From: an uncultured Myxococcales bacterium
GTDB taxonomy: Bacteria; Myxococcota; UBA4151
Direction of reading: 5' to 3'
DNA: 15,683 bases
Assembly: GCA_964013405.1 (NCBI GenBank)
Contig: CAXGWI010000083.1
Coordinates: forward strand, 1 to 15,683
The notes beneath the pieces were generated by a model. That model had not been told where the DNA came from. It made no database searches and was given only the letters and a program-made list of their open reading frames with translations. Of this stretch, positions 2 through 13,624 are shown piece by piece. The position numbers were made by a program, and so were the translations under genes. The stretch's first letter is position 1. Each line of letters opens with the position of its first letter.

Positions 2-655
2 TTGGATGAGCGGGTGATCCGGGATCCGGTCCACCGCTTCCTTGAGTTGGCTGAGAACGCTTGTCATCTCGATGTCATGGAGCCCGGCACGGTCGTTGAT
101 GTCGATATGAAGGGCAAGCGGATTGAAGCTCTGGTCACCAGCCGAGGACAGCGAATCCAGGCGTCAGAATTCCTCCATTCCGGGACTCCTGCTGATCTGG
201 ATTGGGGCCCCGACCGCAAACGGGGCTCGCTCACCAGCCGTTGGAACGAGGACTTAGGGGCCCCGTGGCGTCGTCTTCGGTTAGAGATCAGCGTGCACCC
301 CCAAAACTGGCCGGATTTTTTGGTTGGGCCTCTTCTTTTTGAGGACTTGGGGCTCGGGGTTTCCGTGACTCCGTTTCCTGATCGGGTCGTCCTCGATACC
401 ATCCTGAGCGAGGAGAATCAGGTGTCCGCCGTGATGGATGCCCTCCACCGACATTTACCGTGGCTTCGGCTACCCGAGCCGGATGTTCATGCCATCGAGT
501 TGCCCCGCCGGAGTGATGTGACGGCGCCGCTTCCTAGCTTTAGGGAGTACTGCCCCAATCTCCTCTTCGCCCCAGATCGCCTGACCTTTGGCATGGGGCT
601 CAATCAGCCCTTTCGGGCCGCTCGAGAGTTAGCAGACCTGCTTATCGAGCCCTGA
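2..655 (+). CDS. Probably 5'-truncated; C-terminal part of a degenerate FAD-dependent oxidoreductase (phytoene desaturase/amine oxidase-like fold)
   Basis: The frame is open from the window edge. VVDVDMKGKRIEALVTSRGQRIQASEFLHSG resembles the mid-protein beta-meander of flavoproteins. The C-terminal NLLFAPDRLTFGMGLNQPFRAARELADLL resembles NLYLAGDxTxPGxGxxGAxxSGxxAA. Overlaps the menD 3' end by 14 nt. Confidence 0.45.
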   Translation: MDERVIRDPVHRFLELAENACHLDVMEPGTVVDVDMKGKRIEALVTSRGQRIQASEFLHSGTPADLDWGPDRKRGSLTSRWNEDLGAPWRRLRLEISVHPQNWPDFLVGPLLFEDLGLGVSVTPFPDRVVLDTILSEENQVSAVMDALHRHLPWLRLPEPDVHAIELPRRSDVTAPLPSFREYCPNLLFAPDRLTFGMGLNQPFRAARELADLLIEP

Positions 656-2201
656 GGTCGAACTCCACGAAGCAGGAGCCGGCTTGGTCTTCGAGCCAGG
701 CCTTCAGCCCTGGGCCTTGGTGCGGCAGCACGCGCCGCGTCGGCAGGCCGAAGAGGGCTGCGGCAGCGCAAAGGTCGAGGTGTTGAGGCGTTGCGAAGAA
801 ACGCTCGTGATCTAAGGGGTCGATCAACTTTGCTGCGGGCAGTTGGTCGAAGATTCGCCCCCCGTCGTTGTTGATCACCACCACGCAGATCGGAACTTCG
901 CTTTCCTGGATGAGCCGCAAACTGTTCAGGTCGTGAAACAGGCTTAAATCACCCAGCAGGCAGGTCACTTTGCGACCGGTGCCGGCGGCCATGCCGGCGC
1001 TGAACGCAAGCTGGCCGTCGATGCCGCAAGCACCTCGGTTGCCGTAAATATCGGTGGGTGCATGACCGGGTCGTACCGCTTCATCAAAGCGTCGTACCGA
1101 CAGGCTGTTGCCAAGGACGACAATGCTGTCCAATGGGAGGGCCCCCGCTAGATGCTGGATCAACTGCTCCTCGTCGGTCGCAGGTGAGGAGAGGGGGCGG
1201 ACCGGCCCAAGGTAGGTTCGTAGCTCGTTCGCCGGGGGACAAAGCGCGACGAGTTGAGCGGCCACGGGACCGCCGAGGGCGGCGGCTTCCGGGTCGAGCG
1301 GATTGTTCTGGGCCTCTCGACCGAGTCCAAAGATGGGCACGCCAGCATCGGTCCATTCGACCAAAGCGCGGCGCCAGGTGGTGGCCGTGGGCCAATGTCC
1401 CAGCCGGAGCACCCATGATGGGGTCGCATCTGGGGGTGTCAGCTCTTGAAAGGCCCGTAGGGAGGGGTGGTGCCGGAGGCCAGAGGCGCTCTCTGCGAGC
1501 AGCGTAGAGCCTGTGCTCTGAAGGAAGGTCGCAAGCTCGTCGACGCAGTCTTCCCGGTGGGCCCGTCCCCCGGCGATCACCAGGCCGGACCCTTCGAGCA
1601 AGGCCCGGTGGGGGAGGCTTGGGGGTGATAACGGCTCCCGAGTTGGGAGCGGGGTCTCGAGACTTGGGGCTGGTTGCAGCGTGAGGGGCTTGGCGAGGGG
1701 GACGTTGATATGAAGGGACGCCCCTGCTTCCTGGTCGGCAAGAAGACAGCCGAGGCGTTGGAGTTCAGCCGCACCTTTCTTGGCTTCGAACTCAATAAAG
1801 GTCTCCACTTGGGGTCGAAAGAGATCGCGATGGTCGGCCGACTGGGGGGCGCCTCGGTGACGGAGGTCACTGGGGCGGTCGGCGCTGATGAGGACGAGGT
1901 CAAGATGACTCGCTTTTGCTTCCACGAGGGCCGGGTGCCAATGACAGGGGGCCGAGCCAGAGGTTGCGATAAGTCCTGGGCGCTTCCCCGCCTGCCTCAA
2001 CCCGAGCGCAAAGAAAGCAGCAGCTCGCTCATCAGCGATGGGGTGTAGGGTCAACTCCGCTCGTTCGAGGGCAGCCATCACGAGGGGGGTTGAGCGGGAA
2101 CCGGGCGAAACAACGCAATCGGTGAGCCCCCACTGAATCAGCAGGTCGAGCAGGCCGCGGACGCCGCTGGACTGAGCTTGGGAGCCGGGTCGATCACGCA
2201 A
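642..2201 (-). CDS. menD: 2-succinyl-5-enolpyruvyl-6-hydroxy-3-cyclohexene-1-carboxylate synthase (ThDP-dependent)
   Basis: Motifs SPGSRSTPL, DERAAAFFALG, ADRPxxL, NRGACGIDG, GDLSLFHDLNSL, NNDGGRIF. Start uncertain: TTG at 2201 chosen (GGGG upstream, overlaps the menF end); the ORF extends to TTG 2222. Confidence 0.93.
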   Translation of the reverse strand: MRDRPGSQAQSSGVRGLLDLLIQWGLTDCVVSPGSRSTPLVMAALERAELTLHPIADERAAAFFALGLRQAGKRPGLIATSGSAPCHWHPALVEAKASHLDLVLISADRPSDLRHRGAPQSADHRDLFRPQVETFIEFEAKKGAAELQRLGCLLADQEAGASLHINVPLAKPLTLQPAPSLETPLPTREPLSPPSLPHRALLEGSGLVIAGGRAHREDCVDELATFLQSTGSTLLAESASGLRHHPSLRAFQELTPPDATPSWVLRLGHWPTATTWRRALVEWTDAGVPIFGLGREAQNNPLDPEAAALGGPVAAQLVALCPPANELRTYLGPVRPLSSPATDEEQLIQHLAGALPLDSIVVLGNSLSVRRFDEAVRPGHAPTDIYGNRGACGIDGQLAFSAGMAAGTGRKVTCLLGDLSLFHDLNSLRLIQESEVPICVVVINNDGGRIFDQLPAAKLIDPLDHERFFATPQHLDLCAAAALFGLPTRRVLPHQGPGLKAWLEDQAGSCFVEFDLRAR

Positions 2202-3294
2202 GGTGCAGCCCCGATTCGGCAAGGATCGATTCCCGCTTTAGGTGAATCTCGGCCAGCTCCTGTCGGGGTCTTGAGCCCGGGACACAACCGGCGCCAGCGA
2301 TCAGTTCTAAGTGGTCGCCCCGTTGCTGAATGGCTCGCAGTCCGACGATTAAGGCCCCCGATGAACGAGAGAACCAACCGATCACCCCACCGTAGAGCCC
2401 CCGGGGAAACCGCTCCACCGATTGCAGAACTCGTAATGCTTCAAGTCGCGGTTGGCCACAGAGGGCTGGCGTCGGGTGGAGCATGGCCGCGAGGAGCAGC
2501 GGATGGATCTTTGGGCCCTGCCCATGAAGCCGGGTGCACAGGTGCTGTAGGCCCGGCAGTTGGATGAGTTCTGGAGCCTGGGCTGGGCCGATTTGTTCGC
2601 AATGGTGCTCGAGATGTTGGCGGATGTGGTCAACCACACTCATGTGCTCCCGGCGGTCTTTTTCGCTCCCAAGGAGACCTTGACCCATCCGTGCGTCTTC
2701 TTCGGGATCTGAACTTCGGCCGGTGGTGCCGGCGAGGGCCATCGATTCGACTGCCTCGCCCTGCCAGCGCAGCAAGGCCTCTGGGCTTTTTGCGTAGAAA
2801 GCCCGGTCGGACTCCTGGAGACTCATGGTCCAAACCAAGCCGTCGCCGCCCGTAGGCTGCAACCAGGCTGGAGGGGACTCGGTCCGCAGACGTTGGGCGA
2901 GGACGACCTTATCCAGTTTCCCTTGGGCGAAGAGGGGGGCCAGGCTGGAGATGGATTGAAGCATCTCGTCATCCGTGGGCTGAAGGCCTCGGGCCGTGGC
3001 CGCCAAGGAGGGGTTGGGACTGGCCTCGGCCATCGGTCCGACGTCGATGGACTCCGGGAGCCAGAGTTTCGCCTGAAAGCCGGGCTCACCATCCCGCTGG
3101 TCCGGGAAGTCAAAGGTGACGAGCATCCGACTGCTGTCGTCGGCTGGGAGTTGTCGGATTGCCTCGAGGAGAAGGGGGTTGAGGTCGTTCTGGACGGCCT
3201 TCAAGCGCACCCAGGTTTGGGCAGACCACCGGCTACCGTGGGCGACGAAAGCCTCGGCCGCTGCTGGGCCACCGAAGTGAAGGCGGGGACGCAT
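2194..3294 (-). CDS. menF: Isochorismate synthase (chorismate-binding MST family)
   Basis: Motifs KVVLA, SPE, ALAGT, SEKDRREH, QHL, LHPTPALCGxP, RGLYGGVIGW, AGAGxVxGSxPxxExxEIxxK. Lies directly upstream of menD. Confidence 0.9.
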   Translation of the reverse strand: MRPRLHFGGPAAAEAFVAHGSRWSAQTWVRLKAVQNDLNPLLLEAIRQLPADDSSRMLVTFDFPDQRDGEPGFQAKLWLPESIDVGPMAEASPNPSLAATARGLQPTDDEMLQSISSLAPLFAQGKLDKVVLAQRLRTESPPAWLQPTGGDGLVWTMSLQESDRAFYAKSPEALLRWQGEAVESMALAGTTGRSSDPEEDARMGQGLLGSEKDRREHMSVVDHIRQHLEHHCEQIGPAQAPELIQLPGLQHLCTRLHGQGPKIHPLLLAAMLHPTPALCGQPRLEALRVLQSVERFPRGLYGGVIGWFSRSSGALIVGLRAIQQRGDHLELIAGAGCVPGSRPRQELAEIHLKRESILAESGLHLA

Positions 3295-4032
3295 TCAGAG
3301 GCGCCGCCCCGTGTACAAGCGTGCAGCCCCAAAGGTGAGCGCTTGGTGCTCCACCTCATGAAAGCCGACCTGTTCAAGCTGGGCACAGAACTCCGAAGGC
3401 GCCGGGAATTGGGCAATTGAGTCTGGCAGGTATTTGTACTCCTGTGCCCCCGACAGGATCGCCCCGAGTTGGGGCAGGATGTGGTGCATGTAGAATCGCC
3501 CCGTGGGGCCGACGAGAAAGCCCTCCGGCTCCCCGCCCTCCAAGATGGCAAATCGCCCGCCGGGCCGCAGGACTCGCTTCATTTCGTCCAGGGCTCGATC
3601 TCGGTCTGGCACATTGCGAATCCCCCAGGCCATCGAGATGCCGTGGAAGCGCTCAGACTCGAAGGGCAGGCTTTGGGCGTCACCCTCGACCAACTCCACG
3701 TGCTCCGTCAGGGCTGCATCTGTGACCTTTTTACGGCCGACTTCGAGCATGGCCGGGCTGGGGTCGAGCCCGACGACTTGGAGGCCAGGGACCCTTCGTG
3801 CAGCCATGATGGCCAAGTCAGCGGTCCCGGTGGCGAGATCGAGCATGTAATGGTTTGGGCTGAGTTCAAGACTCTTCAACGCCCGTCGTCGCCAGCCTTG
3901 ATCCATGCCGAAGCTTTGCAGGCGGTTGAGGAGGTCATACCGCCCCGCAATTCGGTCGAACATCGCGCCCGAACCGCCCAGGACACCGCTCTCCGTCATG
4001 GGCTTGCCGACAGGATCGAGATCTTGGCTCAT
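3295..4032 (-). CDS. ubiE: Demethylmenaquinone methyltransferase (UbiE/MenG family)
   Basis: Motifs MFDRIAGRYDLLNRLQSFG, SAM-binding LDLATGTADLA, GDAQSLPF, GIRNV, RVLRPGGR, YKYLPDSI. ATGA overlap with the upstream gene; its stop abuts the menF ATG. Confidence 0.93.
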   Translation of the reverse strand: MSQDLDPVGKPMTESGVLGGSGAMFDRIAGRYDLLNRLQSFGMDQGWRRRALKSLELSPNHYMLDLATGTADLAIMAARRVPGLQVVGLDPSPAMLEVGRKKVTDAALTEHVELVEGDAQSLPFESERFHGISMAWGIRNVPDRDRALDEMKRVLRPGGRFAILEGGEPEGFLVGPTGRFYMHHILPQLGAILSGAQEYKYLPDSIAQFPAPSEFCAQLEQVGFHEVEHQALTFGAARLYTGRRL

Positions 4033-5111
4033 GAGACCCGCTCGACCAGTAGTCGAGTCATCAAGCCGAGGGCGGAGCGAGCCAAGGTGTCGGGTAAGGC
4101 ATCAATACGCTCGTGAGCTTCTTCGAGCCGATCCTGAATCATGCTTCGCGCTGATTCGAGGGCGCCGCTGGCCTCTAGGGCTTCGAGTAAGGCCTGGGTT
4201 TTCTCGGGATCCATCGCTTCGACGGGGCGATGGGCCAGGGATTGAATGAGGGGCCGGTACGTTGGTTGCTCCCGGAGGAGCCAAAGGACCGGCAGCGTGA
4301 GTTTGCCTTCGGCCAGGTCGCTAAGCAGAGGCTTGCCCGTTTGTCGCGGGTCACCAACCAAGTCCAACAGGTCATCTTGCACCTGAAAGGCTAGGCCTAG
4401 ATTGGTCGCAAAACGAGTCAGTTGATCGCGCTGCTCTTCGTCAAGGCCGGCGATGTGCCCACCATAACAAAGGGCCAAACGAAACAGGGAAGCGGTTTTG
4501 CCGTCGATGACCTTGAGATACGAGGCCGAACATTCGGTCAGATTCTGGCTCAGTTCAGCTTGCAGAATCTCGGCCTCGATCAGTTGATCGATGCAATCCA
4601 GGGCGGCGGGAAGGGCCCAGGGATGACCCACGCTGTGGATCAAGCGAAGGGCGCGCACCAGGAGCCAGTCACCGGCAAAGACGGAAACCGTGTTGCCAAA
4701 AGTCACGCGGGCCGTCGGTTGGCCCCGCCGCTCGTCGGCCAGATCGACCACATCATCGTGCAACAGGGTTGCGTTGTGAATGTATTCGACCACGGCAGCC
4801 ATTTGGAGTGCGTCCTCTCGCGACCGTTGCTGGCCGAGGCGACTGGCGACGAGAAGACAGAGGGGCCTGATGCGTTTACCACCGGCCGCGAGCAAGGGCT
4901 GAGCAACGGTCTGAGCCCGGTCTGTTTGGGGCTCGAACAAGAGGGATTCAACCCCGCTTAGGTCCTCCGAGAGCCAGCGCCTGAGCAAGGCGAGACCTTC
5001 GGCTTGCGATGAGTTTCCGACCGCTCTTGCGAAATCCTCAAGGCGCGTCGGGACGGCTTCAGACACGGTATCCTCCACGGCAGCAAGAGCACCGACTGGG
5101 GTTGTCGTCAA
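4029..5111 (-). CDS. Long-chain trans-polyprenyl diphosphate synthase (IspB/HepT-like)
   Basis: Motifs GGKRIRP, FARM HNATLLHDDVVD followed by RRG, GKTASLF, SARM FQVQDDLLD, DLAEGKLTLP. Ala five residues before the FARM fits long-chain products. TTG start at 5111 chosen, 7 nt after the upstream stop; the ORF extends to 5231. Confidence 0.9.
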   Translation of the reverse strand: MTTTPVGALAAVEDTVSEAVPTRLEDFARAVGNSSQAEGLALLRRWLSEDLSGVESLLFEPQTDRAQTVAQPLLAAGGKRIRPLCLLVASRLGQQRSREDALQMAAVVEYIHNATLLHDDVVDLADERRGQPTARVTFGNTVSVFAGDWLLVRALRLIHSVGHPWALPAALDCIDQLIEAEILQAELSQNLTECSASYLKVIDGKTASLFRLALCYGGHIAGLDEEQRDQLTRFATNLGLAFQVQDDLLDLVGDPRQTGKPLLSDLAEGKLTLPVLWLLREQPTYRPLIQSLAHRPVEAMDPEKTQALLEALEASGALESARSMIQDRLEEAHERIDALPDTLARSALGLMTRLLVERVS

Positions 5112-5118
5112 CGCTTTC

Positions 5119-6642
5119 TCAGTCCACCTCAAGGGCCACGGGGTGGTGGCGGTCCTGCCGGTCACCAAGTCCAAGTTGGCCCCAGGAATTCCGTCCCCAG
5201 CATGAAAGCGTGCCCGCCACGTCGATGGCACAGGTCCCTTCGTGGCCGGCTGCGATGGCGACGATCTCGTCCAGATCTGCCAAGAGGACTGGACTTGGAC
5301 GGCAGCCCGCAGTCACGCCGTCCGGTGGGATGCAGAGTTCGCCAGCAGCGGTGCCATCGCCCACCTGACCCCGCCGGTTGTCGCCCCAGCAAACAACGGT
5401 TCCGCCGCGGGTGAGGGCGCAGCTGTGCCGTGCCCCGGCAGCGATGGCTTGGGCTGGTGCCAAACCGTCGACCTCGGCCGGCCTTGGGTGGCAGTGGTTC
5501 CGACTGCTCTGACCCAGTCGGCAGCGGCGTGGAGATGGAATGGCACCCTGTCCCACTTGCCCGTAGCCATTGTAACCCCAGCAGGTCACTTGTCCCTGCT
5601 CGTCGAGGGCGCAGGAATGCCGTTCACCAAGGGCCAACTGGGTGATCGCCGTCAGGTTTCGTACGGGGACGGGAACGAAGGCATCCTGATCGGAACCATT
5701 GCCCAGTTGCCCCTCCGCATTTCGCCCCCAACATCTCACCGCACCATCGCTGACGATGGCACAGGTGTGAAAGCCACCGAGGGCGAGCCCGCTGAGACCT
5801 TCAAGTCCTTCAACTTGCACCGGCTGGGCCAATTGAGCCCGGCGTTGAGGGTCGCCCAACTGACCGTGCAGATTTGAGCCCCAGCAACTGAGGTGTCCGT
5901 CGTGGTGGGCGCAGCTGTGGGTCAGCCCAGCCCCCATCGACTCGACACCCGAAAGTTGGGTGCTGCCCCGTGCATAGCGGCATGTTTCTCGGGCGGTCCG
6001 AGAGCAGCTCTCACTGGGTTCAGGCCCCGTTTGTCCGGCCGTTGCCAGGCCCCAACAGGCGCCCGTTCCATCGGCCAACCACTCACAGAGGTGCCCGCCA
6101 CCGGCCACGATGCCGGCGGGGCTGCGCTCGAAGATGGGGCCGGGGGCCAGCCGGTCGACGCCGACTTCACCGCCGAGGGCACCGTAGCGGTTGTTACCCC
6201 AGCAGCGTAGCGAGCCGTTCATCTCGAAAGCACAACTGATCGCGCCCGAATCACCGCCACCCATGATGATGCGATCCCAGACTGGCTGGGGGCGTCGGCA
6301 GTCGGAAGTACAGGTCTCAGACCCTGGCGCATCACAGGCTTCGTAGCCAGGGGCGTCGGGGTTTACATCCATGCGCTGAAAACCGTCGCCGCATCGGGCC
6401 TCTTGGCAGGTCGAGGTGCATGCGTCCTGATCGTTCAGGTTGCCGTCGTCACAGGCCTCGCCAGGACTCAAGAGACCATCGCCACACCTGGCTGGGGCAC
6501 AAAGGCTCGTGCAATCATCTGCATCGTCCGTGTTGCCGTCATCGCAGGCTTCTGAGCCTTCGGTGTGTCCATCGCCGCAAACGGGGGAGGCTGGAGCGCA
6601 GGCGCACAATGCAGAGCCCAACAGCAGGGCCTGGAGCCTCAT
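5119..6642 (-). CDS. Lipoprotein with three myxobacterial Cys-rich (CGDG...EACDDGN) repeats and a 7-bladed RCC1/BLIP-II-like beta-propeller
   Basis: ATG at 6642 in an ATGA overlap; signal peptide [15 protein letters not shown]. Repeats CGDG-x-EACDDGN-x-C-T-S-x-C (DUF4215-like). Seven CWGxNxxGQLG-type RCC1 repeats with GxxHxCA motifs. Confidence 0.88.
6298..6579 (-). repeat. Three tandem myxobacterial cysteine-rich repeats (coding)
   Basis: [27 protein letters not shown] / [27 protein letters not shown] / CGDGFQ...[16 protein letters not shown]. Confidence 0.8.
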
Positions 6643-7964
6643 GGGTCCGTGCAACTCTGCCCCTGCTCCGGCATGCAATTCTGCCCGACGACTCGACCGG
6701 CAACGCGAACGGGGGCGCAGAGGAAGCCGCTGGGGCAACTGGGCTGGTTTGGATCGCAGAGCAGTCCACAGCGGTAACTGGCGCAGAGGCCGCCCGAGCA
6801 ACGACCAGGAACGTTCTCGGCCGGCGTTGCGCCAACGCATTCCTGGCCCTGGGCACATTCTCGGGTGAAGAAGCAGGGGTAGGCCGGGTTGCAGTAGAAG
6901 CCGTCGCCGCCGCAGTCCGCGTTGGCGTGACAGGCCGTGCGGCTCGCCTCGCCAATACAGAAATTTCCTTCACCGCAGTCGGACAGGACCCGGTGGTTGC
7001 AGGCTCGGCAGAGGCCGCCGGGAAGACCGTCTCGGCAGTGGCCCACCTCCCCATCGCAATATTGCCCTGGCTCGCAAAAGAGGTCCGCCTGGCAGGCTTG
7101 GGCGCAGCGGCCTCCATCGGCACAGACTTCATCGGCACACGTGCCCTGAACACAGGCCTGATCCAGGGGGCAATCCCGATGTTCATCACAGCCATCAATA
7201 CAGCGCCCGGAATCGCAGCGCTCACCCAGCGGGCAGGCCTTGTTGACGCTACATCCAGGCACGCAGAGGCCGGAACGACAGACGGTCCCTTCCGGGCATT
7301 CCTGATCCTCGCCATTCGGGCACCGGGTGGGTGGCTGACAATAACCATCGAGACAGCGCCAGTCGGCCGGGCATTCCGCATTCTGCTGGCAGGACACCAC
7401 ACAGGCCCCTTCAAGACAGGTGCTGCCCCGGGGGCAGTCGACGTCCGAGCGACACGCTGGCGGAAGCGAGCAATCGCCAAAAGCCGGAACACATTGGGCG
7501 GCGGTGCCGAATTGCCAGCACACCGATCCCGTGGGGCAGCGGTCCGGATCGGCGCTGCAGTCCACCCCGCAGGCGCCTCCGGGCAGGCAAAGATCTTGGG
7601 ATTGGCCACATTCTGAACTGCTGCTGCACGGTGAGCAGAGCCCGCCTCGGGGACGGCAAACACCTTCGGCACTGCAATACAAAGCCAAGGAGCAATCACT
7701 GTCGACTCGGCAGCCACCTTCTTGGGCTTCGCAGCGTCCTGTGTAGGGATTGCAGCGCTCGCCGCTGTCACAGATGTTGGAGCTGGCACAGACACAGAGT
7801 CCCGTCCAAGCATCACAGGCCTGGCCTGTGGGGCAATCCTCATCTTGGAGACATGCGACGGTCTGCTCGTCGCCCGTGGGCCTCTCGCCATCAGTCGTAC
7901 AGCCTGGCCCGAAGACGACCAGGCCAAGGACGAACCCAATGGAACTTAACGCCAGCGCCTTCAA
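6639..7964 (-). CDS. Cysteine-rich repeat lipoprotein (myxobacterial, Dickkopf-N/EB-like modules)
   Basis: TTG start preceded by GGGGAG. Signal peptide with lipobox [22 protein letters not shown]. About 15 C-x2-D-x-D-C-P-x-G-x2-C-like modules. ATGA coupling to the next gene. Confidence 0.85.
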
Positions 7965-8068: not shown

Positions 8069-8929
8069 ATGACAAAGGCCGATCTGGAGAAAGTCTTCCA
8101 GACAGCACGGCAGCTGTTAAACCGCAGTTGGGCCGTTGAAGCAGAGCAACTGGTGCGCACGGCGATTGCGATGCACCCCGGGACACCCGAATTGCAGGAT
8201 CTTTTAGGCGAATGCCTTTTGCGCCAAGGTCGCTGGATGGATAGCTTGGCCGTCTTGATGGATGGGGTGCGAGCATTCCCCGAAGACCAAGGGCTCAAAC
8301 TTCGCCTGGGCCAATTCCTCGCGGGCGAGGGCCTGCATACGGCGATGGAGGTCTTCCGACAGGTGGAGGAATCCCATGGCTCCGACCCGCTGGTTCTGTT
8401 GGAGATTGCCATGACGCTCGCCGACCTAGGAGATCCGGCGGAGGCTGAGCGCTATGCGACCCGGGCCCTCGAGGTCGACGAGGATTATTACGATGCGTGG
8501 ATTGAATTGGCCCATATCCGCATCGATGCGGGTGATTGGCGCGGCGCCGTCCAGCCGATCCGGCGGGCGATCGATTTGGGGGGGGCGCGGGCGGATTTGT
8601 GGGTCGACTTGGCCGCCGCCTATCTCCATTTGGGCTTCTATGGTGAGGCAGAAAAAGCCCTCGATGAAGCCGAGCAAATGGATGAGGAACACGTCGGGCT
8701 CTCCTATTACCGCGCCGCCTTGTCCGCATCCCAACGGGATCAACAGCGGGCGCTTCGGCACCTGCGGCGGGCTTTTTCGACCCAGCCTGAGCGCTTGCGA
8801 CGGCTCTTCCAGGTGGATCGTTTCTTCGATGAAGTTCGGGAATTACCCGAGGTCCTGGAAATCATTGGAACGGAAGCCATGGCAGGCGAGGTGAAGGTGC
8901 TCAACCCCCGGCGCCGACCCAAGCGATGA
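8069..8929 (+). CDS. Tetratricopeptide repeat protein with TPR end-of-group C-terminal domain
   Basis: GGAG RBS at 8060-8063. Repeated TPR helix pairs (LGECLLRQGRWMDS, LADLGDPAEAERYATRAL, YLHLGFYGEAEKAL). C-terminal YYRAAL...ALxxLxxA...DRFFDEVRELPE. ATGA overlap with ftsY. Confidence 0.85.
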   Translation: MTKADLEKVFQTARQLLNRSWAVEAEQLVRTAIAMHPGTPELQDLLGECLLRQGRWMDSLAVLMDGVRAFPEDQGLKLRLGQFLAGEGLHTAMEVFRQVEESHGSDPLVLLEIAMTLADLGDPAEAERYATRALEVDEDYYDAWIELAHIRIDAGDWRGAVQPIRRAIDLGGARADLWVDLAAAYLHLGFYGEAEKALDEAEQMDEEHVGLSYYRAALSASQRDQQRALRHLRRAFSTQPERLRRLFQVDRFFDEVRELPEVLEIIGTEAMAGEVKVLNPRRRPKR

Positions 8930-10419
8930 CTGCGGACGGTCAAACCTTGGTTTGGGGCCTTGTCGGTCTCGCCATCCTGCTGGGGCTCGGCTGGTCGATC
9001 TGGTCGACCCTACGGGCCCGCCGCCGTGATGACGGTGGTGAAGGCTGGCGGTACAATCTCGACACGGCCTACGATGCGAAGGCGGAGGCGAAGCGGGCTG
9101 CTGAGCAGACGGCACCGGCTTCCGAGGCGGCCGAGGCAGCCGACGATCCGGCGCAGGTCGACGTCGAACCGGAGGCGGTACCGGCTGAAGAACCGGCGGC
9201 ACCAACTGAAGAACCGGCGATAGCGCCAGTTGAAGAAGCGGTGGCGGTGCCCGAGCCGGTTTCGGAATCGCCGGCCGCGACAGCAAGCGAGCCGGCACCG
9301 GCCGTGGACCCAGAGGCATTGGAGGCGGCCCGCCGTGAGCGCTTCGAGCAAGAAAAAGCCGCCCGGCGGGCAGAGAAAGCGGCGAAGCGTGAAGCCAGAG
9401 AAGAGGCGGCGGAGGCTGCGGCCGCACAGCGTCTCGATGACTTGGCCGAGGACCGCCAGCGTTTCGAGGCCGAACGCCGCCAGGCCTTTCGACTCGGCCT
9501 GACGAAGACCAGAGAAGGGCTCCTCGGCAAGCTCGGCGGGATTTTGGGTTTTGGCAGTCAGGTCACCGAAGAGACCTTTGCCGACCTAGAAGCGGTGCTC
9601 TTTACCTCTGACATCGGCGTTCGGACGGCCGACCGCTTGCTTTCCACACTCCGGCAGCAACACGCTTCGAAGGCGATGAAGGATCAGCGGGAATTGCTCA
9701 GCGCCCTGCGCCGAGAGATCGAATCCATCCTCGATCTCGACCAAGAACCTTTGTTCGCCGGGGGCGAGGCCGGTGCCCCCAGAGTCATCATGGTGGTGGG
9801 CGTTAATGGTGTAGGCAAAACCACGACCATCGGCAAACTCGCCCACCGAGCCATCGCCGAAGGACATCAGGTCTTGGTGGGTGCCGGTGATACCTTCCGA
9901 GCTGCAGCGGTCGAACAGCTTGAGGTCTGGGGTGAGCGAAGTGGCGCAACCGTCGTCAGCGGCAAGTCTCAGGCCGATCCGAGTTCGGTCCTGTTCTCTG
10001 CGGTCCAAAAGGGCCTAGAGCAAGGGGCCAGCGTGATCATCTGCGATACGGCCGGGCGCCTTCATACCCGCGCCGAGCTGATGGAAGAATTGAAGAAGAT
10101 GCACCGGGTGATGGGTAAAGCGCTACCTGGTGCGCCCCACGAAGTGCTTTTGGTCCTCGACGCCACGGTCGGGCAAAATGCCATCGCTCAGGCCCGTAGC
10201 TTTAAGGATGCGGTGGAGGTCACCGGCATCGCCCTGACCAAGTTGGATGGGACCGCACGCGGCGGCGTGATCGCCGGTATTTGTGACGAGATGGGGGTGG
10301 CCGTTCGCTTTATCGGGGTTGGTGAAGCCCTGGAAGATCTTCGAGTCTTCGATGCGGAGGCCTTCGTTGATGCCCTTTTTGCCGATGCTGAGCAGATGGT
10401 GCTTGGCGGCGGCGACTAA
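8926..10419 (+). CDS. ftsY: Signal recognition particle receptor FtsY with N-terminal transmembrane helix and acidic linker
   Basis: Motifs [68 protein letters not shown]. Confidence 0.96.
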
Positions 10420-10445: not shown

Positions 10446-10474
10446 TTGACCAAGGCTGCCACGACAATTACCGT
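10446..10474 (+). promoter_or_regulatory. Putative sigma70-type promoter for zapA-6S-ygfA-rny
   Basis: TTGACC (10446-10451), 17-nt spacer, TACCGT (10469-10474), then purine-rich GAGGGG before ATG 10494. Confidence 0.6.
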
Positions 10475-10493
10475 GGGAGGTAGAGGGGGAGCG

Positions 10494-10817
10494 ATGAGCG
10501 AACGAGTGGAGGTCAGAATTGCCGATTGTCGGCTCCGGATTCAGCCCGGGACCCATTCGGTGGAGATGCTCCATGAGGCCGCCCGCAAAGCGGATCTCTC
10601 CCTCGATCGGGTCATGGGCCGGCGGTCCGGTGATTCTAGGTTGACCTTGCGGCATTTGGAGCCGCGGAAAATGGTTCAGGCGCTTTTTACGCTGAGCCTG
10701 ACCTTGGAAAACCTACGCACCGATCTGAAGGGCATGACCCAAGAGTTGGCAGCCGAGGTGGAAGCACTTCGGCGAGAGATTGATGAACTTAGGTCCAAGT
10801 CTGGAGGGAAATCCTGA
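10494..10817 (+). CDS. zapA: Divergent cell division protein ZapA-like
   Basis: 107 aa. The N-terminal VEVRIADCRLRI matches the ZapA V-x-V-x-I-x-G-x-x-Y-x-I pattern, followed by helices and a C-terminal coiled coil. Canonical position directly upstream of 6S RNA and ygfA. Confidence 0.65.
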   Translation: MSERVEVRIADCRLRIQPGTHSVEMLHEAARKADLSLDRVMGRRSGDSRLTLRHLEPRKMVQALFTLSLTLENLRTDLKGMTQELAAEVEALRREIDELRSKSGGKS

Positions 10818-10996
10818 GTCCCGCCGTTCTCGCTCGAGAAACAGCGCCGACCGCAGGTAGATCAGGGGAGCCGGTTTGAAAGTCGTGGAACGAAGGCACG
10901 GATGAAACTGCCGAGCGTACGCTAGAAGCGACTCCTTCGGCGCCCACCTAGGCAAGCGGGTCTAGGTCGTGTTGAGAGCGAGGCGGCAACTCAGGG
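10812..10996 (+). ncRNA. ssrS: 6S RNA
   Basis: 185-nt long irregular hairpin: TCCTGAGT/ACTCAGGG, CCGCC/GGCGG, CTCGCTC/GAGCGAG, CAGCG-CGACC/GGTCG-TGTTG, a central weakly paired region, GGG-GCCGG/TCGGC-CCC, AGTCGT/GCGACT. Carries GGGAGCC and CCCACCT elements and the classic zapA-ssrS-ygfA synteny. Confidence 0.88.
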
Positions 10997-11017
10997 CCTC
11001 TCCAGTTGGATCTCTCG

Positions 11018-11587
11018 ATGGACACCGAGGTGTTCGAAGAGAGCGCGATGCGCGAGGAAAAACAGCGCCTTCGGCGGGCCCAACGGGACCGCCGCAATGG
11101 GCATCACAGGGAGTACTGGCTTCGTGTTGGTCGGGCGATCACCGGCCGCGTTGCGCGTTTTTTGCTTGGCCGCCCCAGACTGATGGTCGGTGTGTACAAT
11201 GCCTTGCCCGATGAGCCTGTGATCGCGCCCTTACCCCATGCGACCGCGTTTCCCAGAGTTGAGGGCCGGGAGATCCACTTTCATGAATGTCACCAGGATC
11301 GACTTCGGCCTGGCGCGTTTGGAATTGAAGAACCTCCTATTGGAGCCCCCATCGTCCACCCCGATGTGATCCTTGTACCGGGGCTCGCGTTTGCCGAGGA
11401 TGGCAGTCGCCTTGGGCGAGGGCAGGGGTTCTATGATCGATATTTGGCGACCCACGAGACCCTGAGCATTGGGGTTGTCGACGAGGCGGGGCTTCTTGCA
11501 AGCGTTCCGCGGGAAGCCCATGACGCTCGGATGGATGTGATCGTCACCCAGGACCGAGTGTTGGACAGAAAGGATACAGGAATATGA
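11018..11587 (+). CDS. ygfA: 5-formyltetrahydrofolate cyclo-ligase
   Basis: Motifs EKQRLRR, YNALPDEP, FPRV, GAFGIEEP, DVILVPGLAF..GSRLGRGQGFYDRYL, VPREAHDARMDVIVT. Alternative start ATG 11048. Confidence 0.92.
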   Translation: MDTEVFEESAMREEKQRLRRAQRDRRNGHHREYWLRVGRAITGRVARFLLGRPRLMVGVYNALPDEPVIAPLPHATAFPRVEGREIHFHECHQDRLRPGAFGIEEPPIGAPIVHPDVILVPGLAFAEDGSRLGRGQGFYDRYLATHETLSIGVVDEAGLLASVPREAHDARMDVIVTQDRVLDRKDTGI

Positions 11588-13125
11588 GTCCAATTGTGAC
11601 GGGCTTGTTGGGCCTTATACCGGGCCTCATTTTAGGTTGGTTGTTTGTCAAAAAACGGTCCCAGGCCGAAGCAGAGAAGACGGCGCAAGAGCACCAACAG
11701 AACATCGAACAACTTGAGGCGGACCAGGCCGAGCGTCTCGAGGCGCTTCGAGAAGAAATCAAGAGCGAGCAGGATACGGAAGAAGAGGCGCTCAAGGGGC
11801 AGATCGCCGAGGTGAAGGAGCGGGCCTCGGCCCTCGCGGAAGAGGAGAAGTCCCTAAAGGCTGCGCGCCAAAAACTGAATTCTGAGTTGGGTCGCGTGCA
11901 GTCGCAAACGGAGTCCATGACCAGGAAAGAGGACCAGTTGCAGCGCCAAATCGAGTCGATGGAAGCTCGAGAGGGGGAGCTCGAAACGGCGCTGGAGCGA
12001 GTGGCTGGTCTCACCCGGGATGAAGCCCTTAAGCAACTCGAAGAAGAACTGCGCGACCGGGCCCACGAGCGGGCAGCGGCCGAACTGCGGCGGATTCAGC
12101 AGCAAGGTCAGGAGGAGTTGCGGGAGGCTTCAGCAGCGCTCCTGGCGAAGGCTGTCTTTCGCTATGGCGGCGAGGTGATTCAAGAGATCACGACCACCGC
12201 TGTTCACCTCCCGTCCGACGACCTCAAAGGGCGGATCATCGGTCGCGAAGGGCGCAATATTCAAAGCTTTGAAGAAGCCACCGGAGTCGATGTGATCATC
12301 GACGATACGCCGGGAATCATTACGCTCTCGAGCTTTAGTCCATTACGGCGACTGATCGCCCACGAGGCCATGACACGATTGCTCCGTGATGGGCGGATTC
12401 ACCCCACTCGAATCGAGGAGTCGGTGGCGAAAGTCCGTAAGGCGGTGGACCGATCACTGCGCCAGAAGGGTGAAGAAGCCGCAGCCGAAGTCGGCGTTCA
12501 GGGGCTCGACGGGGCTGTCTTGGATTTGTTGGGTAAGCTCTCGATCCACCAGGTGAATGGTCAAAACCAGTTACATATGGCTCTCTCTGCAGCCCGATTG
12601 GCCGAGCGTCTGGCCGCCGAGTTGGACCTTAACCCGAAGCCCTGCCGCCGAGCCGCCCTGCTCAGTTTGATCGGCTGTGCTGCCGATCACCAGATGGAGG
12701 GATCAACAGCGGACATCACGGTGGCGCTAGCTCGTCGTCATGGCGAGTCGAAGAAGGTCCTTGCGGCACTCGAGGATCTCACCACTGAGAGCGGACCCAG
12801 AAGTACGACGGGGATCGTGGTCCAACTGGCCACAAAGTTGGCTGCCAGTCGCCCGGGCGTCCAGAGCGAGCAGCTGGCCGAAAGCATCGAACGGCTCGAG
12901 GCCTTGGAGCAAATGGCTTTGGAGGAAGAAGGCGTTCGACAGGCCCACGTCCTTCAAGCCGGTACCGAGATTCGCGTACTCGTCGACCCAGCGGAGGTCA
13001 GCGAGGGCAAGCTGATGGCTTTGGCCCAGCGTCTGGTGCGGAAAATCGAAGACCGGGCCGATCGCCTCGGTGAGGTTCAAGTCCACGTTGTTCGGGAGAC
13101 CCGGGTCACCGAGACGGCGATGTAG
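11584..13125 (+). CDS. rny: Ribonuclease Y homolog with a degenerate, probably inactive HD domain
   Basis: N-terminal TM helix, long coiled coil, LERVAGLTRDEA, KH domain LPSDDLKGRIIGREGRNIQSFEEATGVDVIIDDTP, DGRIHPTRIEE, C-terminal QAGTEIRVLV and VVRETR. The HD motif reads LLSLIG instead of LLHDIG. Confidence 0.9.
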   Translation: MSPIVTGLLGLIPGLILGWLFVKKRSQAEAEKTAQEHQQNIEQLEADQAERLEALREEIKSEQDTEEEALKGQIAEVKERASALAEEEKSLKAARQKLNSELGRVQSQTESMTRKEDQLQRQIESMEAREGELETALERVAGLTRDEALKQLEEELRDRAHERAAAELRRIQQQGQEELREASAALLAKAVFRYGGEVIQEITTTAVHLPSDDLKGRIIGREGRNIQSFEEATGVDVIIDDTPGIITLSSFSPLRRLIAHEAMTRLLRDGRIHPTRIEESVAKVRKAVDRSLRQKGEEAAAEVGVQGLDGAVLDLLGKLSIHQVNGQNQLHMALSAARLAERLAAELDLNPKPCRRAALLSLIGCAADHQMEGSTADITVALARRHGESKKVLAALEDLTTESGPRSTTGIVVQLATKLAASRPGVQSEQLAESIERLEALEQMALEEEGVRQAHVLQAGTEIRVLVDPAEVSEGKLMALAQRLVRKIEDRADRLGEVQVHVVRETRVTETAM

Positions 13126-13624
13126 TTCCGGATTCGGTGGATTTGAGGTCGAGTTTGTCGAGCCCCATCGCCTCAGGGCGTTCCCGTTCGTCGATCAGCT
13201 TGAGTTGATCCGTTTGACGGGCGATGATCTCGCTCAAGTCGAAGTAAAGGCGGCCCTGCCAAGATTCGCCACAGCGAACGATCAACTTGTCATGCCAGCC
13301 ATGCTGGGTGTCGAGTCCAGCGCTCTCAAAGGAGAGGCCGAGGGCGCAGGGCGGTGTTTCTACGAAGGAGCGAACGAAGGCTCGTTCCGCAGCCGCGGCC
13401 GGGCCACTTTGAACGAGGATCGCGTTGGCATGGGTATCGCCTGCATTGGCCTTGAGCCAAAAGCCATCTTTGGTTCGGACGCGCTGCCCATCACCGGCTT
13501 TCACGATGAGCTGGGCCCATTGGGGACCGGTGTCCTTGACGGCTTGGACTGGGGGCGGGGGCGATTCGGGGGCTTGGGTCTGACAAGCGAGGACGAAAAG
13601 ACTGGGGAGGACCAGAACTCTCAT
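13106..13624 (-). CDS. Hypothetical lipoprotein
   Basis: Signal peptide with lipobox [14 protein letters not shown], Pro-rich linker, globular domain with two Cys. ATGA coupling to tyrS; overlaps the rny 3' end by 20 nt. Confidence 0.7.

Follow-up and report, generated by a model that had tools for sequence, protein, structure and literature searches.

What does a bacterium keep an RNase Y gene for when the encoded protein has lost every conserved residue of its catalytic site? In many bacteria, mRNA decay is initiated by RNase Y, and a gene of this kind lies in the window analysed here, that is, the whole 15,683-nucleotide stretch of contig CAXGWI010000083.1 (assembly GCA_964013405.1) from an uncultured Myxococcales bacterium. 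Its product is called copy a below. The features that concern it are as follows.

8926..10419, + strand: ftsY, upstream context (Pfam and NCBIfam profile matches)
10446..10817, + strand: possible zapA-like open reading frame (weak Pfam match, E 0.087)
10846..10961, + strand: probable 6S RNA (sub-threshold Rfam match; supported mainly by position)
11006..11587, + strand: ygfA-like 5-formyltetrahydrofolate cyclo-ligase (profile matches; start codon uncertain)
11584..13125, + strand: RNase Y copy a, 513 amino acids, KH-intact and HD-dead
11593..11643, + strand: predicted N-terminal membrane anchor of copy a, approximately residues 4-20 (hydropathy window 2.10)
11650..12177, + strand: long helical coiled-coil region of copy a, approximately residues 23-198, strongly acidic
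12229..12261, + strand: intact KH GxxG motif of copy a, GRIIGREGRNI, residues 216-226
12544..12858, + strand: HD-fold domain of copy a, residues 321-425, with 0/11 conserved site residues
12859..13122, + strand: C-terminal domain of copy a, residues 426-513, 98% identical to that of a congener

The 6S RNA that a preliminary description of this DNA placed next to the gene has its position in its favour, between the zapA-like and ygfA-like genes, but not its score, which reaches 18.5 bits (E 0.11) where the gathering score is 46.4; at the gathering threshold, Rfam gives no match in the window. A search for a sigma-70-like promoter found none. Two low-depth contigs of one marine metatranscriptome, matching 10550-10917 and 11664-11811, give a weak hint that the copy-a locus is expressed, DNA carry-over being possible. 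On the opposite strand, a 172-residue open reading frame (13106-13624) located downstream of tyrS converges on the RNase Y gene and shares its last 20 bases; the N-terminus of its product is lipoprotein-like, and neither Pfam nor NCBIfam gives a match. Farther away on the same strand, menD-, menF-, menG/ubiE- and polyprenyl-synthase-like frames, recognized by eye from their translations, stand in a row at 642-5231, and two cysteine-rich, probably secreted proteins, one of them with RCC1-like repeats, are encoded at 5119-7964 and resemble, also by eye, myxobacterial Cys-repeat proteins.

The frame of copy a is open, with 0 internal stops, and overlaps the ygfA-like frame in the sequence ATGA; re-reading confirmed both this coupling and the coordinates given in the preliminary description. 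The anchor, coiled coil, KH domain and C-terminal domain noted there are likewise borne out, by PF12072 (RNase_Y_N, 40.7 bits, from residue 4), by PF00013 (KH_1, 32.4 bits), by hydropathy, by a C-terminal profile match (E 3e-29) and by an AlphaFold model. This model, built on a 110-row alignment (mean pLDDT 84.8, pTM 0.49), has helices at residues 3-140 and 145-198 and retains the HD helices at 329-421, with a block pLDDT of 83-97. TIGR03319 matches copy a over its whole length with 418.1 bits, which is below the curated cut-off of 454.35, and a Pfam profile search gives no match to the HD domain PF01966. Copy a possesses the anchor with the long coil, the KH domain with GxxG and the C-terminal domain of an RNase Y, and lacks the HD domain's His/Asp residues. 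Judged from its sequence, it is an RNase Y by descent and architecture that fails the catalytic test and would not be an active member of the family alone. Databases label such dead copies 'ribonuclease Y'.

To score each RNase Y copy, 11 HD and 10 KH positions were used; the full score of 29 of 29 single-copy genes is partly by construction, because the positions were chosen on these genes. Copy a, aligned with single-copy RNase Y proteins of its phylum, keeps 10/10 of the KH positions and 0/11 of the HD site positions. In its RxSY motif, R is replaced by H322 (12547), S by V324 and Y by N325; farther along, H is replaced by M332 (12577), the HD dyad by S361-L362 (12664-12669), the Lys after it by C365, H by T375 (12706), HH by L399-T400 (12778-12783) and D by T417 (12832). 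All seven conserved His/Asp positions (M332, S361, L362, T375, L399, T400 and T417), which we take to be metal ligands, as in HD domains generally, are therefore changed (0/7 kept). The register is supported by an hhalign alignment of copy a with the HD-intact second copy of the same genome, which has only two one-residue gaps near 399-407. The earlier reading that every ligand position is replaced, with SL at 12664-12669, was correct.

The same dead site is present in four genomes of the family and in further metagenomic homologues (10 proteins aligned). Both G001, of the same genus (85% identical), and the more distant G002 and G003 (53-55%) have open frames and 0/11 site residues in copy a, related genomes being among the checks that the preliminary description proposed; a homologue 54% identical to copy a is labelled Myxococcota in public sources. 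Between the source genome (G000) and G001, copy a has a pN of 0.10 and a pS of 0.82, and its dead HD domain a pN of 0.117 and a pS of 0.79; these values are reported because saturation of the synonymous sites makes dN/dS not computable. Copy a is under strong purifying selection, and the low pN relative to pS indicates that the gene is not decaying. Its HD domain, with a retained fold, lost catalytic residues and purifying selection, is as would be expected of a pseudoenzyme. The initial proposal of a repurposed, membrane-anchored, putatively non-catalytic protein with an intact KH domain, and not a decaying pseudogene, agrees with these values.

Where the proposal fell short is in regarding copy a as a lone pseudo-nuclease, because the genome holds a mirror-image copy:

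G000:C10:21885-23408 (outside the window), - strand: RNase Y copy b (locus L002), 507 amino acids, HD-intact, KH motif lost

The second rny gene that had been suggested for a search thus exists, but it is intact only in its HD domain (11/11; PF01966, 42.6 bits). Copy b is 21% identical to copy a, has a membrane anchor and scores 221 bits with TIGR03319, below the cut-off of 454. In place of the GxxG loop it has a different and shorter sequence, which a profile of the KH domain alone does not match; from a colinear profile alignment to copy a (hhalign), the KH fold may be kept. Domain-only profiles run on all six frames of the source genome (94% complete) found no third copy. As for the other RNases that were to be looked for, profile searches gave two matches to RNase E/G and none to RNase J in this genome. 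The layout of open reading frames around copy b is common to G000 and G001. Directly abutting copy b, upstream, is a 1327-residue coiled-coil-rich frame without a Pfam match (G000:C10, L081:7409-11389, - strand); G001 and G003 have frames of similar length upstream of copy b, and downstream of it G000, G002 and G003 carry a response-regulator/HD-domain gene. The two copies also change in opposite ways. Between G000 and G001, the KH domain is 94% and the HD domain 82% identical in copy a, and the corresponding values are 83% and 93% in copy b. The KH domain is the more conserved in a and the HD domain in b in 5/5 pairs of pairs, marginally in one; the HD domain is the fastest-changing part of copy a after the coil.

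This pairing recurs in myxobacteria. In the window's phylum, a sample of 201 genomes gave 41 with a TIGR03319 match, and a second, overlapping sample of 401 gave 53. In this first set, all 30 b-type copies have HD 11/11 and KH 0-4 of 10, and all 26 a-type copies have HD 0-10 of 11, with KH 10/10 in 25 and 9/10 in one; both copies were found in 25 genomes. Four of the 25 were reached via named loci (Kofleriaceae, Myxococcales and a MAG labelled Pseudomonadota); the scan of named genomes covered 4 of the 64 parts of the collection, and the KH motif was absent from 6 of its 80 loci. A held-out set consisted of 151 genomes from a second phylum-level group, the phylum of G206, with a match in 67 genomes and two matches in 17. 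Without G206, already counted, and G574, in which one gene is in two pieces, all 15 two-copy genomes fit, the higher-scoring copy having HD 6-10 and KH 9-10 and the lower-scoring copy HD 11 and KH 0-4. Among the 50 single copies of this set, ten were read, chosen mostly for the lowest scores, and nine are fully intact; the exception, in G619, carries an Asp-to-Asn change, and no partner was found for it. Complementary losses in co-occurring paralogs, as expected of a heteromer of specialized subunits, are therefore seen in 40 of the 40 myxobacterial genomes with both copies read, of which 15 belong to the held-out set.

These tallies leave out G038 (partial), G096 and G574 (each with one gene in two pieces) from both pairs and single copies, and count G215 and G070, and likewise G345 and G211, as one genome each. 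Copy a is a C-terminal fragment in G343 and is in two pieces in G021; in G343 and G005, it is cut by a contig end. Copy b occurs alone in G004, G016 and G079, and ygfA was not found in those assemblies either; copy a occurs alone in G342 (86% complete). Erosion of the HD domain is only partial in most lineages, the family of the source genome being the end point. Because many a-type copies keep the HD dyad and have lost only one to four residues, they may be partly active. Where checked, in both groups, the KH-keeping copy sits at the usual locus, beside ygfA or recA/ymdB. In G025 and G074 (L085 and L060), relA/spoT follows the a-type copy directly.

A similar pair is found in Lactobacillaceae, in which 31 of 121 genomes have two RNase Y copies; 17 of the 31 pairs and 8 of the 86 single copies were read, and all eight single copies are intact. 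Copy 1 keeps KH 10/10 in all 17 pairs and has HD 2-11, below 11 in 16; copy 2 has KH 2-6 of 10 and HD 11/11 in 15 pairs and 10 in two. In Apilactobacillus apinorum, for example, the KH motif is absent from locus L164, and the second copy of the genome has an intact KH domain and HD 4/11. In three loci checked, recA adjoins copy 1. The split is milder in a subgroup (G289, G219, G257 and G316) in which copy 2 keeps GxxG. In many KH-eroded copy-2 proteins (L175, L191, L197, L201, L213 and L217), a short tail, basic and mostly rich in lysine, has been added at the C-terminus; it may stand in for a contact with RNA or with the membrane. In trees, both copies fall inside their own family with support of 99-100, and a single clade of myxobacterial b and Lactobacillaceae copy 2 is rejected by the AU test (p-AU 5e-5); as judged from these sequences, the complementary pair arose independently in Lactobacillaceae. 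The myxobacterial b copies form one group (SH-aLRT 100), to which a long-branch group of KH-less, HD-intact RNase Y (P0023, P0040 and P0050) is sister. A single origin of all myxobacterial a copies was considered and is not established, with support of 97 in FastTree and an SH-aLRT of 12 in IQ-TREE. The 57 pairs, being in part kin and not independent, perhaps represent two or three origins.

The mirror-image losses in the two copies suggest that they likely make up one two-part enzyme, and the recurrence of the pairing across many genomes favours an RNA-binding half over a free tether or a general scaffold. Copy a is probably the RNA-binding half that, with copy b, forms one membrane-bound two-subunit RNase Y. 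What is observed is that the defects of the two copies complement each other, that both genes are under purifying selection and that the copies occur together repeatedly. Of the roles suggested in the preliminary description (RNA tether, degradosome scaffold or dominant-negative partner), the predicted non-catalytic repurposing stands, the free tether or scaffold is disfavoured by the recurring presence of copy b, and a dominant-negative or regulatory role is a rival reading.

In the accessible part of the report on Bacillus subtilis RNase Y (PMC9775385), the enzyme dimerizes via the coiled coil and, in AlphaFold models, a C-terminal strand; a channel lies near the KH domains, and the C-terminal region is the proposed dimer interface. 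Because RNase Y dimerizes through these parts, a duplicate would start out able to form mixed dimers, and the ancestral homodimer would have become, after duplication, a heteromer joined via the coiled coil as well as the C-terminal domain; that copies a and b bind each other in this way we infer from their sequences. Single-stranded RNA would be bound and held in place by the KH domain of copy a, and cleavage would take place at the metal site of copy b. Provided that one subunit can cut the RNA that the other holds, one KH domain and one active site per dimer would be dispensable, and complementary loss would then lock the pair in. The route was probably stepwise, with the KH motif lost in b everywhere and the HD residues lost gradually in a, often with the last Asp changing to Asn first. 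According to the available part of PMC10303841, B. subtilis RNase Y depends on its HD dyad; no passage showing that RNase Y cleavage needs the KH domain was found in the literature searched.

Coil and anchor bear on this model in some lineages. In a scored window of 120 residues, the coil of copy a has a net charge of -14 and that of copy b +12; the second a/b pair of the source genus has -9/+10, and 27 single-copy proteins range from -8 to +2. Charge complementarity was rejected as a general rule, b being the more basic copy in 10 of 20 pairs from myxobacteria and 6 of 17 from Lactobacillaceae. By a crude coil score, which favours homodimers by construction (control 5/496), just 6 of 39 pairs have a mixed coil that outscores both homodimers. 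Shuffled pairings did as well as cognate ones in 598 of 5000 trials for Lactobacillaceae, which is not significant, and in 0 of 5000 for myxobacteria, a result confounded by kinship. In family f19 (4/4 genomes; L072, L073, L235 and L237), copy b has an open frame without a hydrophobic anchor, and copy a keeps its anchor on a coil of roughly 135 residues, by arithmetic about 40 fewer than the usual 175 or so, as would be expected if a tethers b. A joint loss of the anchor in both f19 copies was discarded as a start-codon error.

Several observations count against a two-subunit enzyme: genes a and b are unlinked, GxxG is kept in at least six Lactobacillaceae copy-2 proteins, HD is 11/11 in both copies of G289, and, in the accessible part of PMC10303841, overproduced HD-dead B. 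subtilis RNase Y is dominant-negative and not helpful. This last result is also what would be expected if copy b were a self-sufficient nuclease without a KH domain and copy a a regulator acting through mixed oligomers or competition for RNA. RNase J2 has been described as a specificity factor for J1, as far as the available text of bioRxiv 10.64898/2026.05.27.728192 goes, and b stands alone in three high- or medium-completeness assemblies. These assemblies lack ygfA as well, however, and in G005 a contig end truncates copy a; no whole lineage has b alone, pairs being present in f12 (G347) and f21 (G039, G211 and G346). Since every myxobacterial b has lost its KH motif and the same loss is seen again in Lactobacillaceae, a regulatory role is unlikely. 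We consider it less likely still that the copies work apart, a as a membrane RNA tether or scaffold, for example for RNase E/G, and b as an HD phosphohydrolase with another substrate. The unlinked genes, the identity of only 21% and the presence of RNase E/G without RNase J in the 94% complete genome would suit such separate roles, but both copies retain the full RNase Y architecture and coil length, they co-occur tightly, their coils change in a correlated way in the source genus and f19, and the same outcome was reached twice.

It is very improbable that copy a remains an enzyme via an alternative metal site. H322, D368, H369, E372 and D398 are invariant in 10/10 proteins of the copy-a family and might be thought to form one, but intact enzymes have H369 and E372 as well, relatives differ in the residues that have replaced all seven canonical His/Asp, and the HD domain is the part of a that changes fastest after the coil. 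The His at 12574 (H331), raised earlier as a possible alternative ligand, occurs in just 3/10 family proteins and so is not conserved. Recent decay, or an artefact of assembly or binning, might be suspected in an assembly of 244 contigs with the two copies on different contigs, but this hardly seems credible when the frames are open, the same dead site is found in four genomes down to 53% identity and nonsynonymous change is rare even in the dead domain; contig C10 matches the genome in G+C (0.607), and the surroundings of b are the same in G001. The conservation data already largely refute this explanation.

RNase J1 and J2 of Bacillota form a heteromer. As far as the accessible sources go, they are likewise paralogous RNases, one of which, with reduced catalysis, serves as partner, but J1 is a complete enzyme, whereas each RNase Y copy here is without a different module. 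Anchor, coil, KH domain, HD fold and C-terminal domain, their order, the length and, for copy a, the gene neighbourhood are all shared with RNase Y of the B. subtilis type (Rny/YmdA/CvfA; TIGR03319); the studied enzymes are single-gene homo-oligomers, whereas here the KH domain and the catalytic site are on separate gene products. The engineered H368A/D369A mutant (PMC10303841, available part) is likewise KH-intact and catalytically dead, but it poisons a complete enzyme, whereas the natural copy a is conserved beside a KH-less partner. By analogy of logic, the closest system is the hetero-bacterioferritin Bfr1/Bfr2, in which, according to the accessible part of PMC12867745, a duplicated homo-oligomer has two sites split between interdependent paralogous chains, as appears to be the case here; its fold and chemistry are unrelated, and the heteromer was seen there by cryo-EM, whereas ours is deduced.

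Database entries named 'Ribonuclease Y 1' and 'Ribonuclease Y 2' exist for some species. No description of complementary RNase Y paralogs was found in the literature searched, which comprised titles and the starts of abstracts of papers, few of them behind subscription; term searches of the available parts of PMC5436854, PMC3997798, PMC5289998 and PMC11261784 gave no mention. No solved RNase Y structure was found by PDB sequence and profile searches (0 matches; then 11 weak matches to KH, HD or coil), and there is no structural study of the RNase Y KH domain bound to RNA according to the accessible part of a 2024 review (PMC11261784).

RNase Y may have become, at least twice, a nuclease that obligatorily consists of two subunits, one chain reading the RNA and the other cutting it, a generalization to which we give about an even chance. 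The a-type series, from 10 down to 0 of 11 HD residues, together with the Lactobacillaceae origin, would be a clean case of the change from homodimer to heteromer. In two-copy species, deletion of a single gene would be misread. The pairs of cultured lactic acid bacteria, such as A. apinorum, make the two-subunit idea directly testable, and a natural pair of KH-only and HD-only proteins separates binding from cutting and so tests for action across subunits. If the idea is true, ordinary homodimers, too, would pass RNA from the KH domain of one subunit to the other subunit's active site, a long-open point of the RNase Y mechanism.
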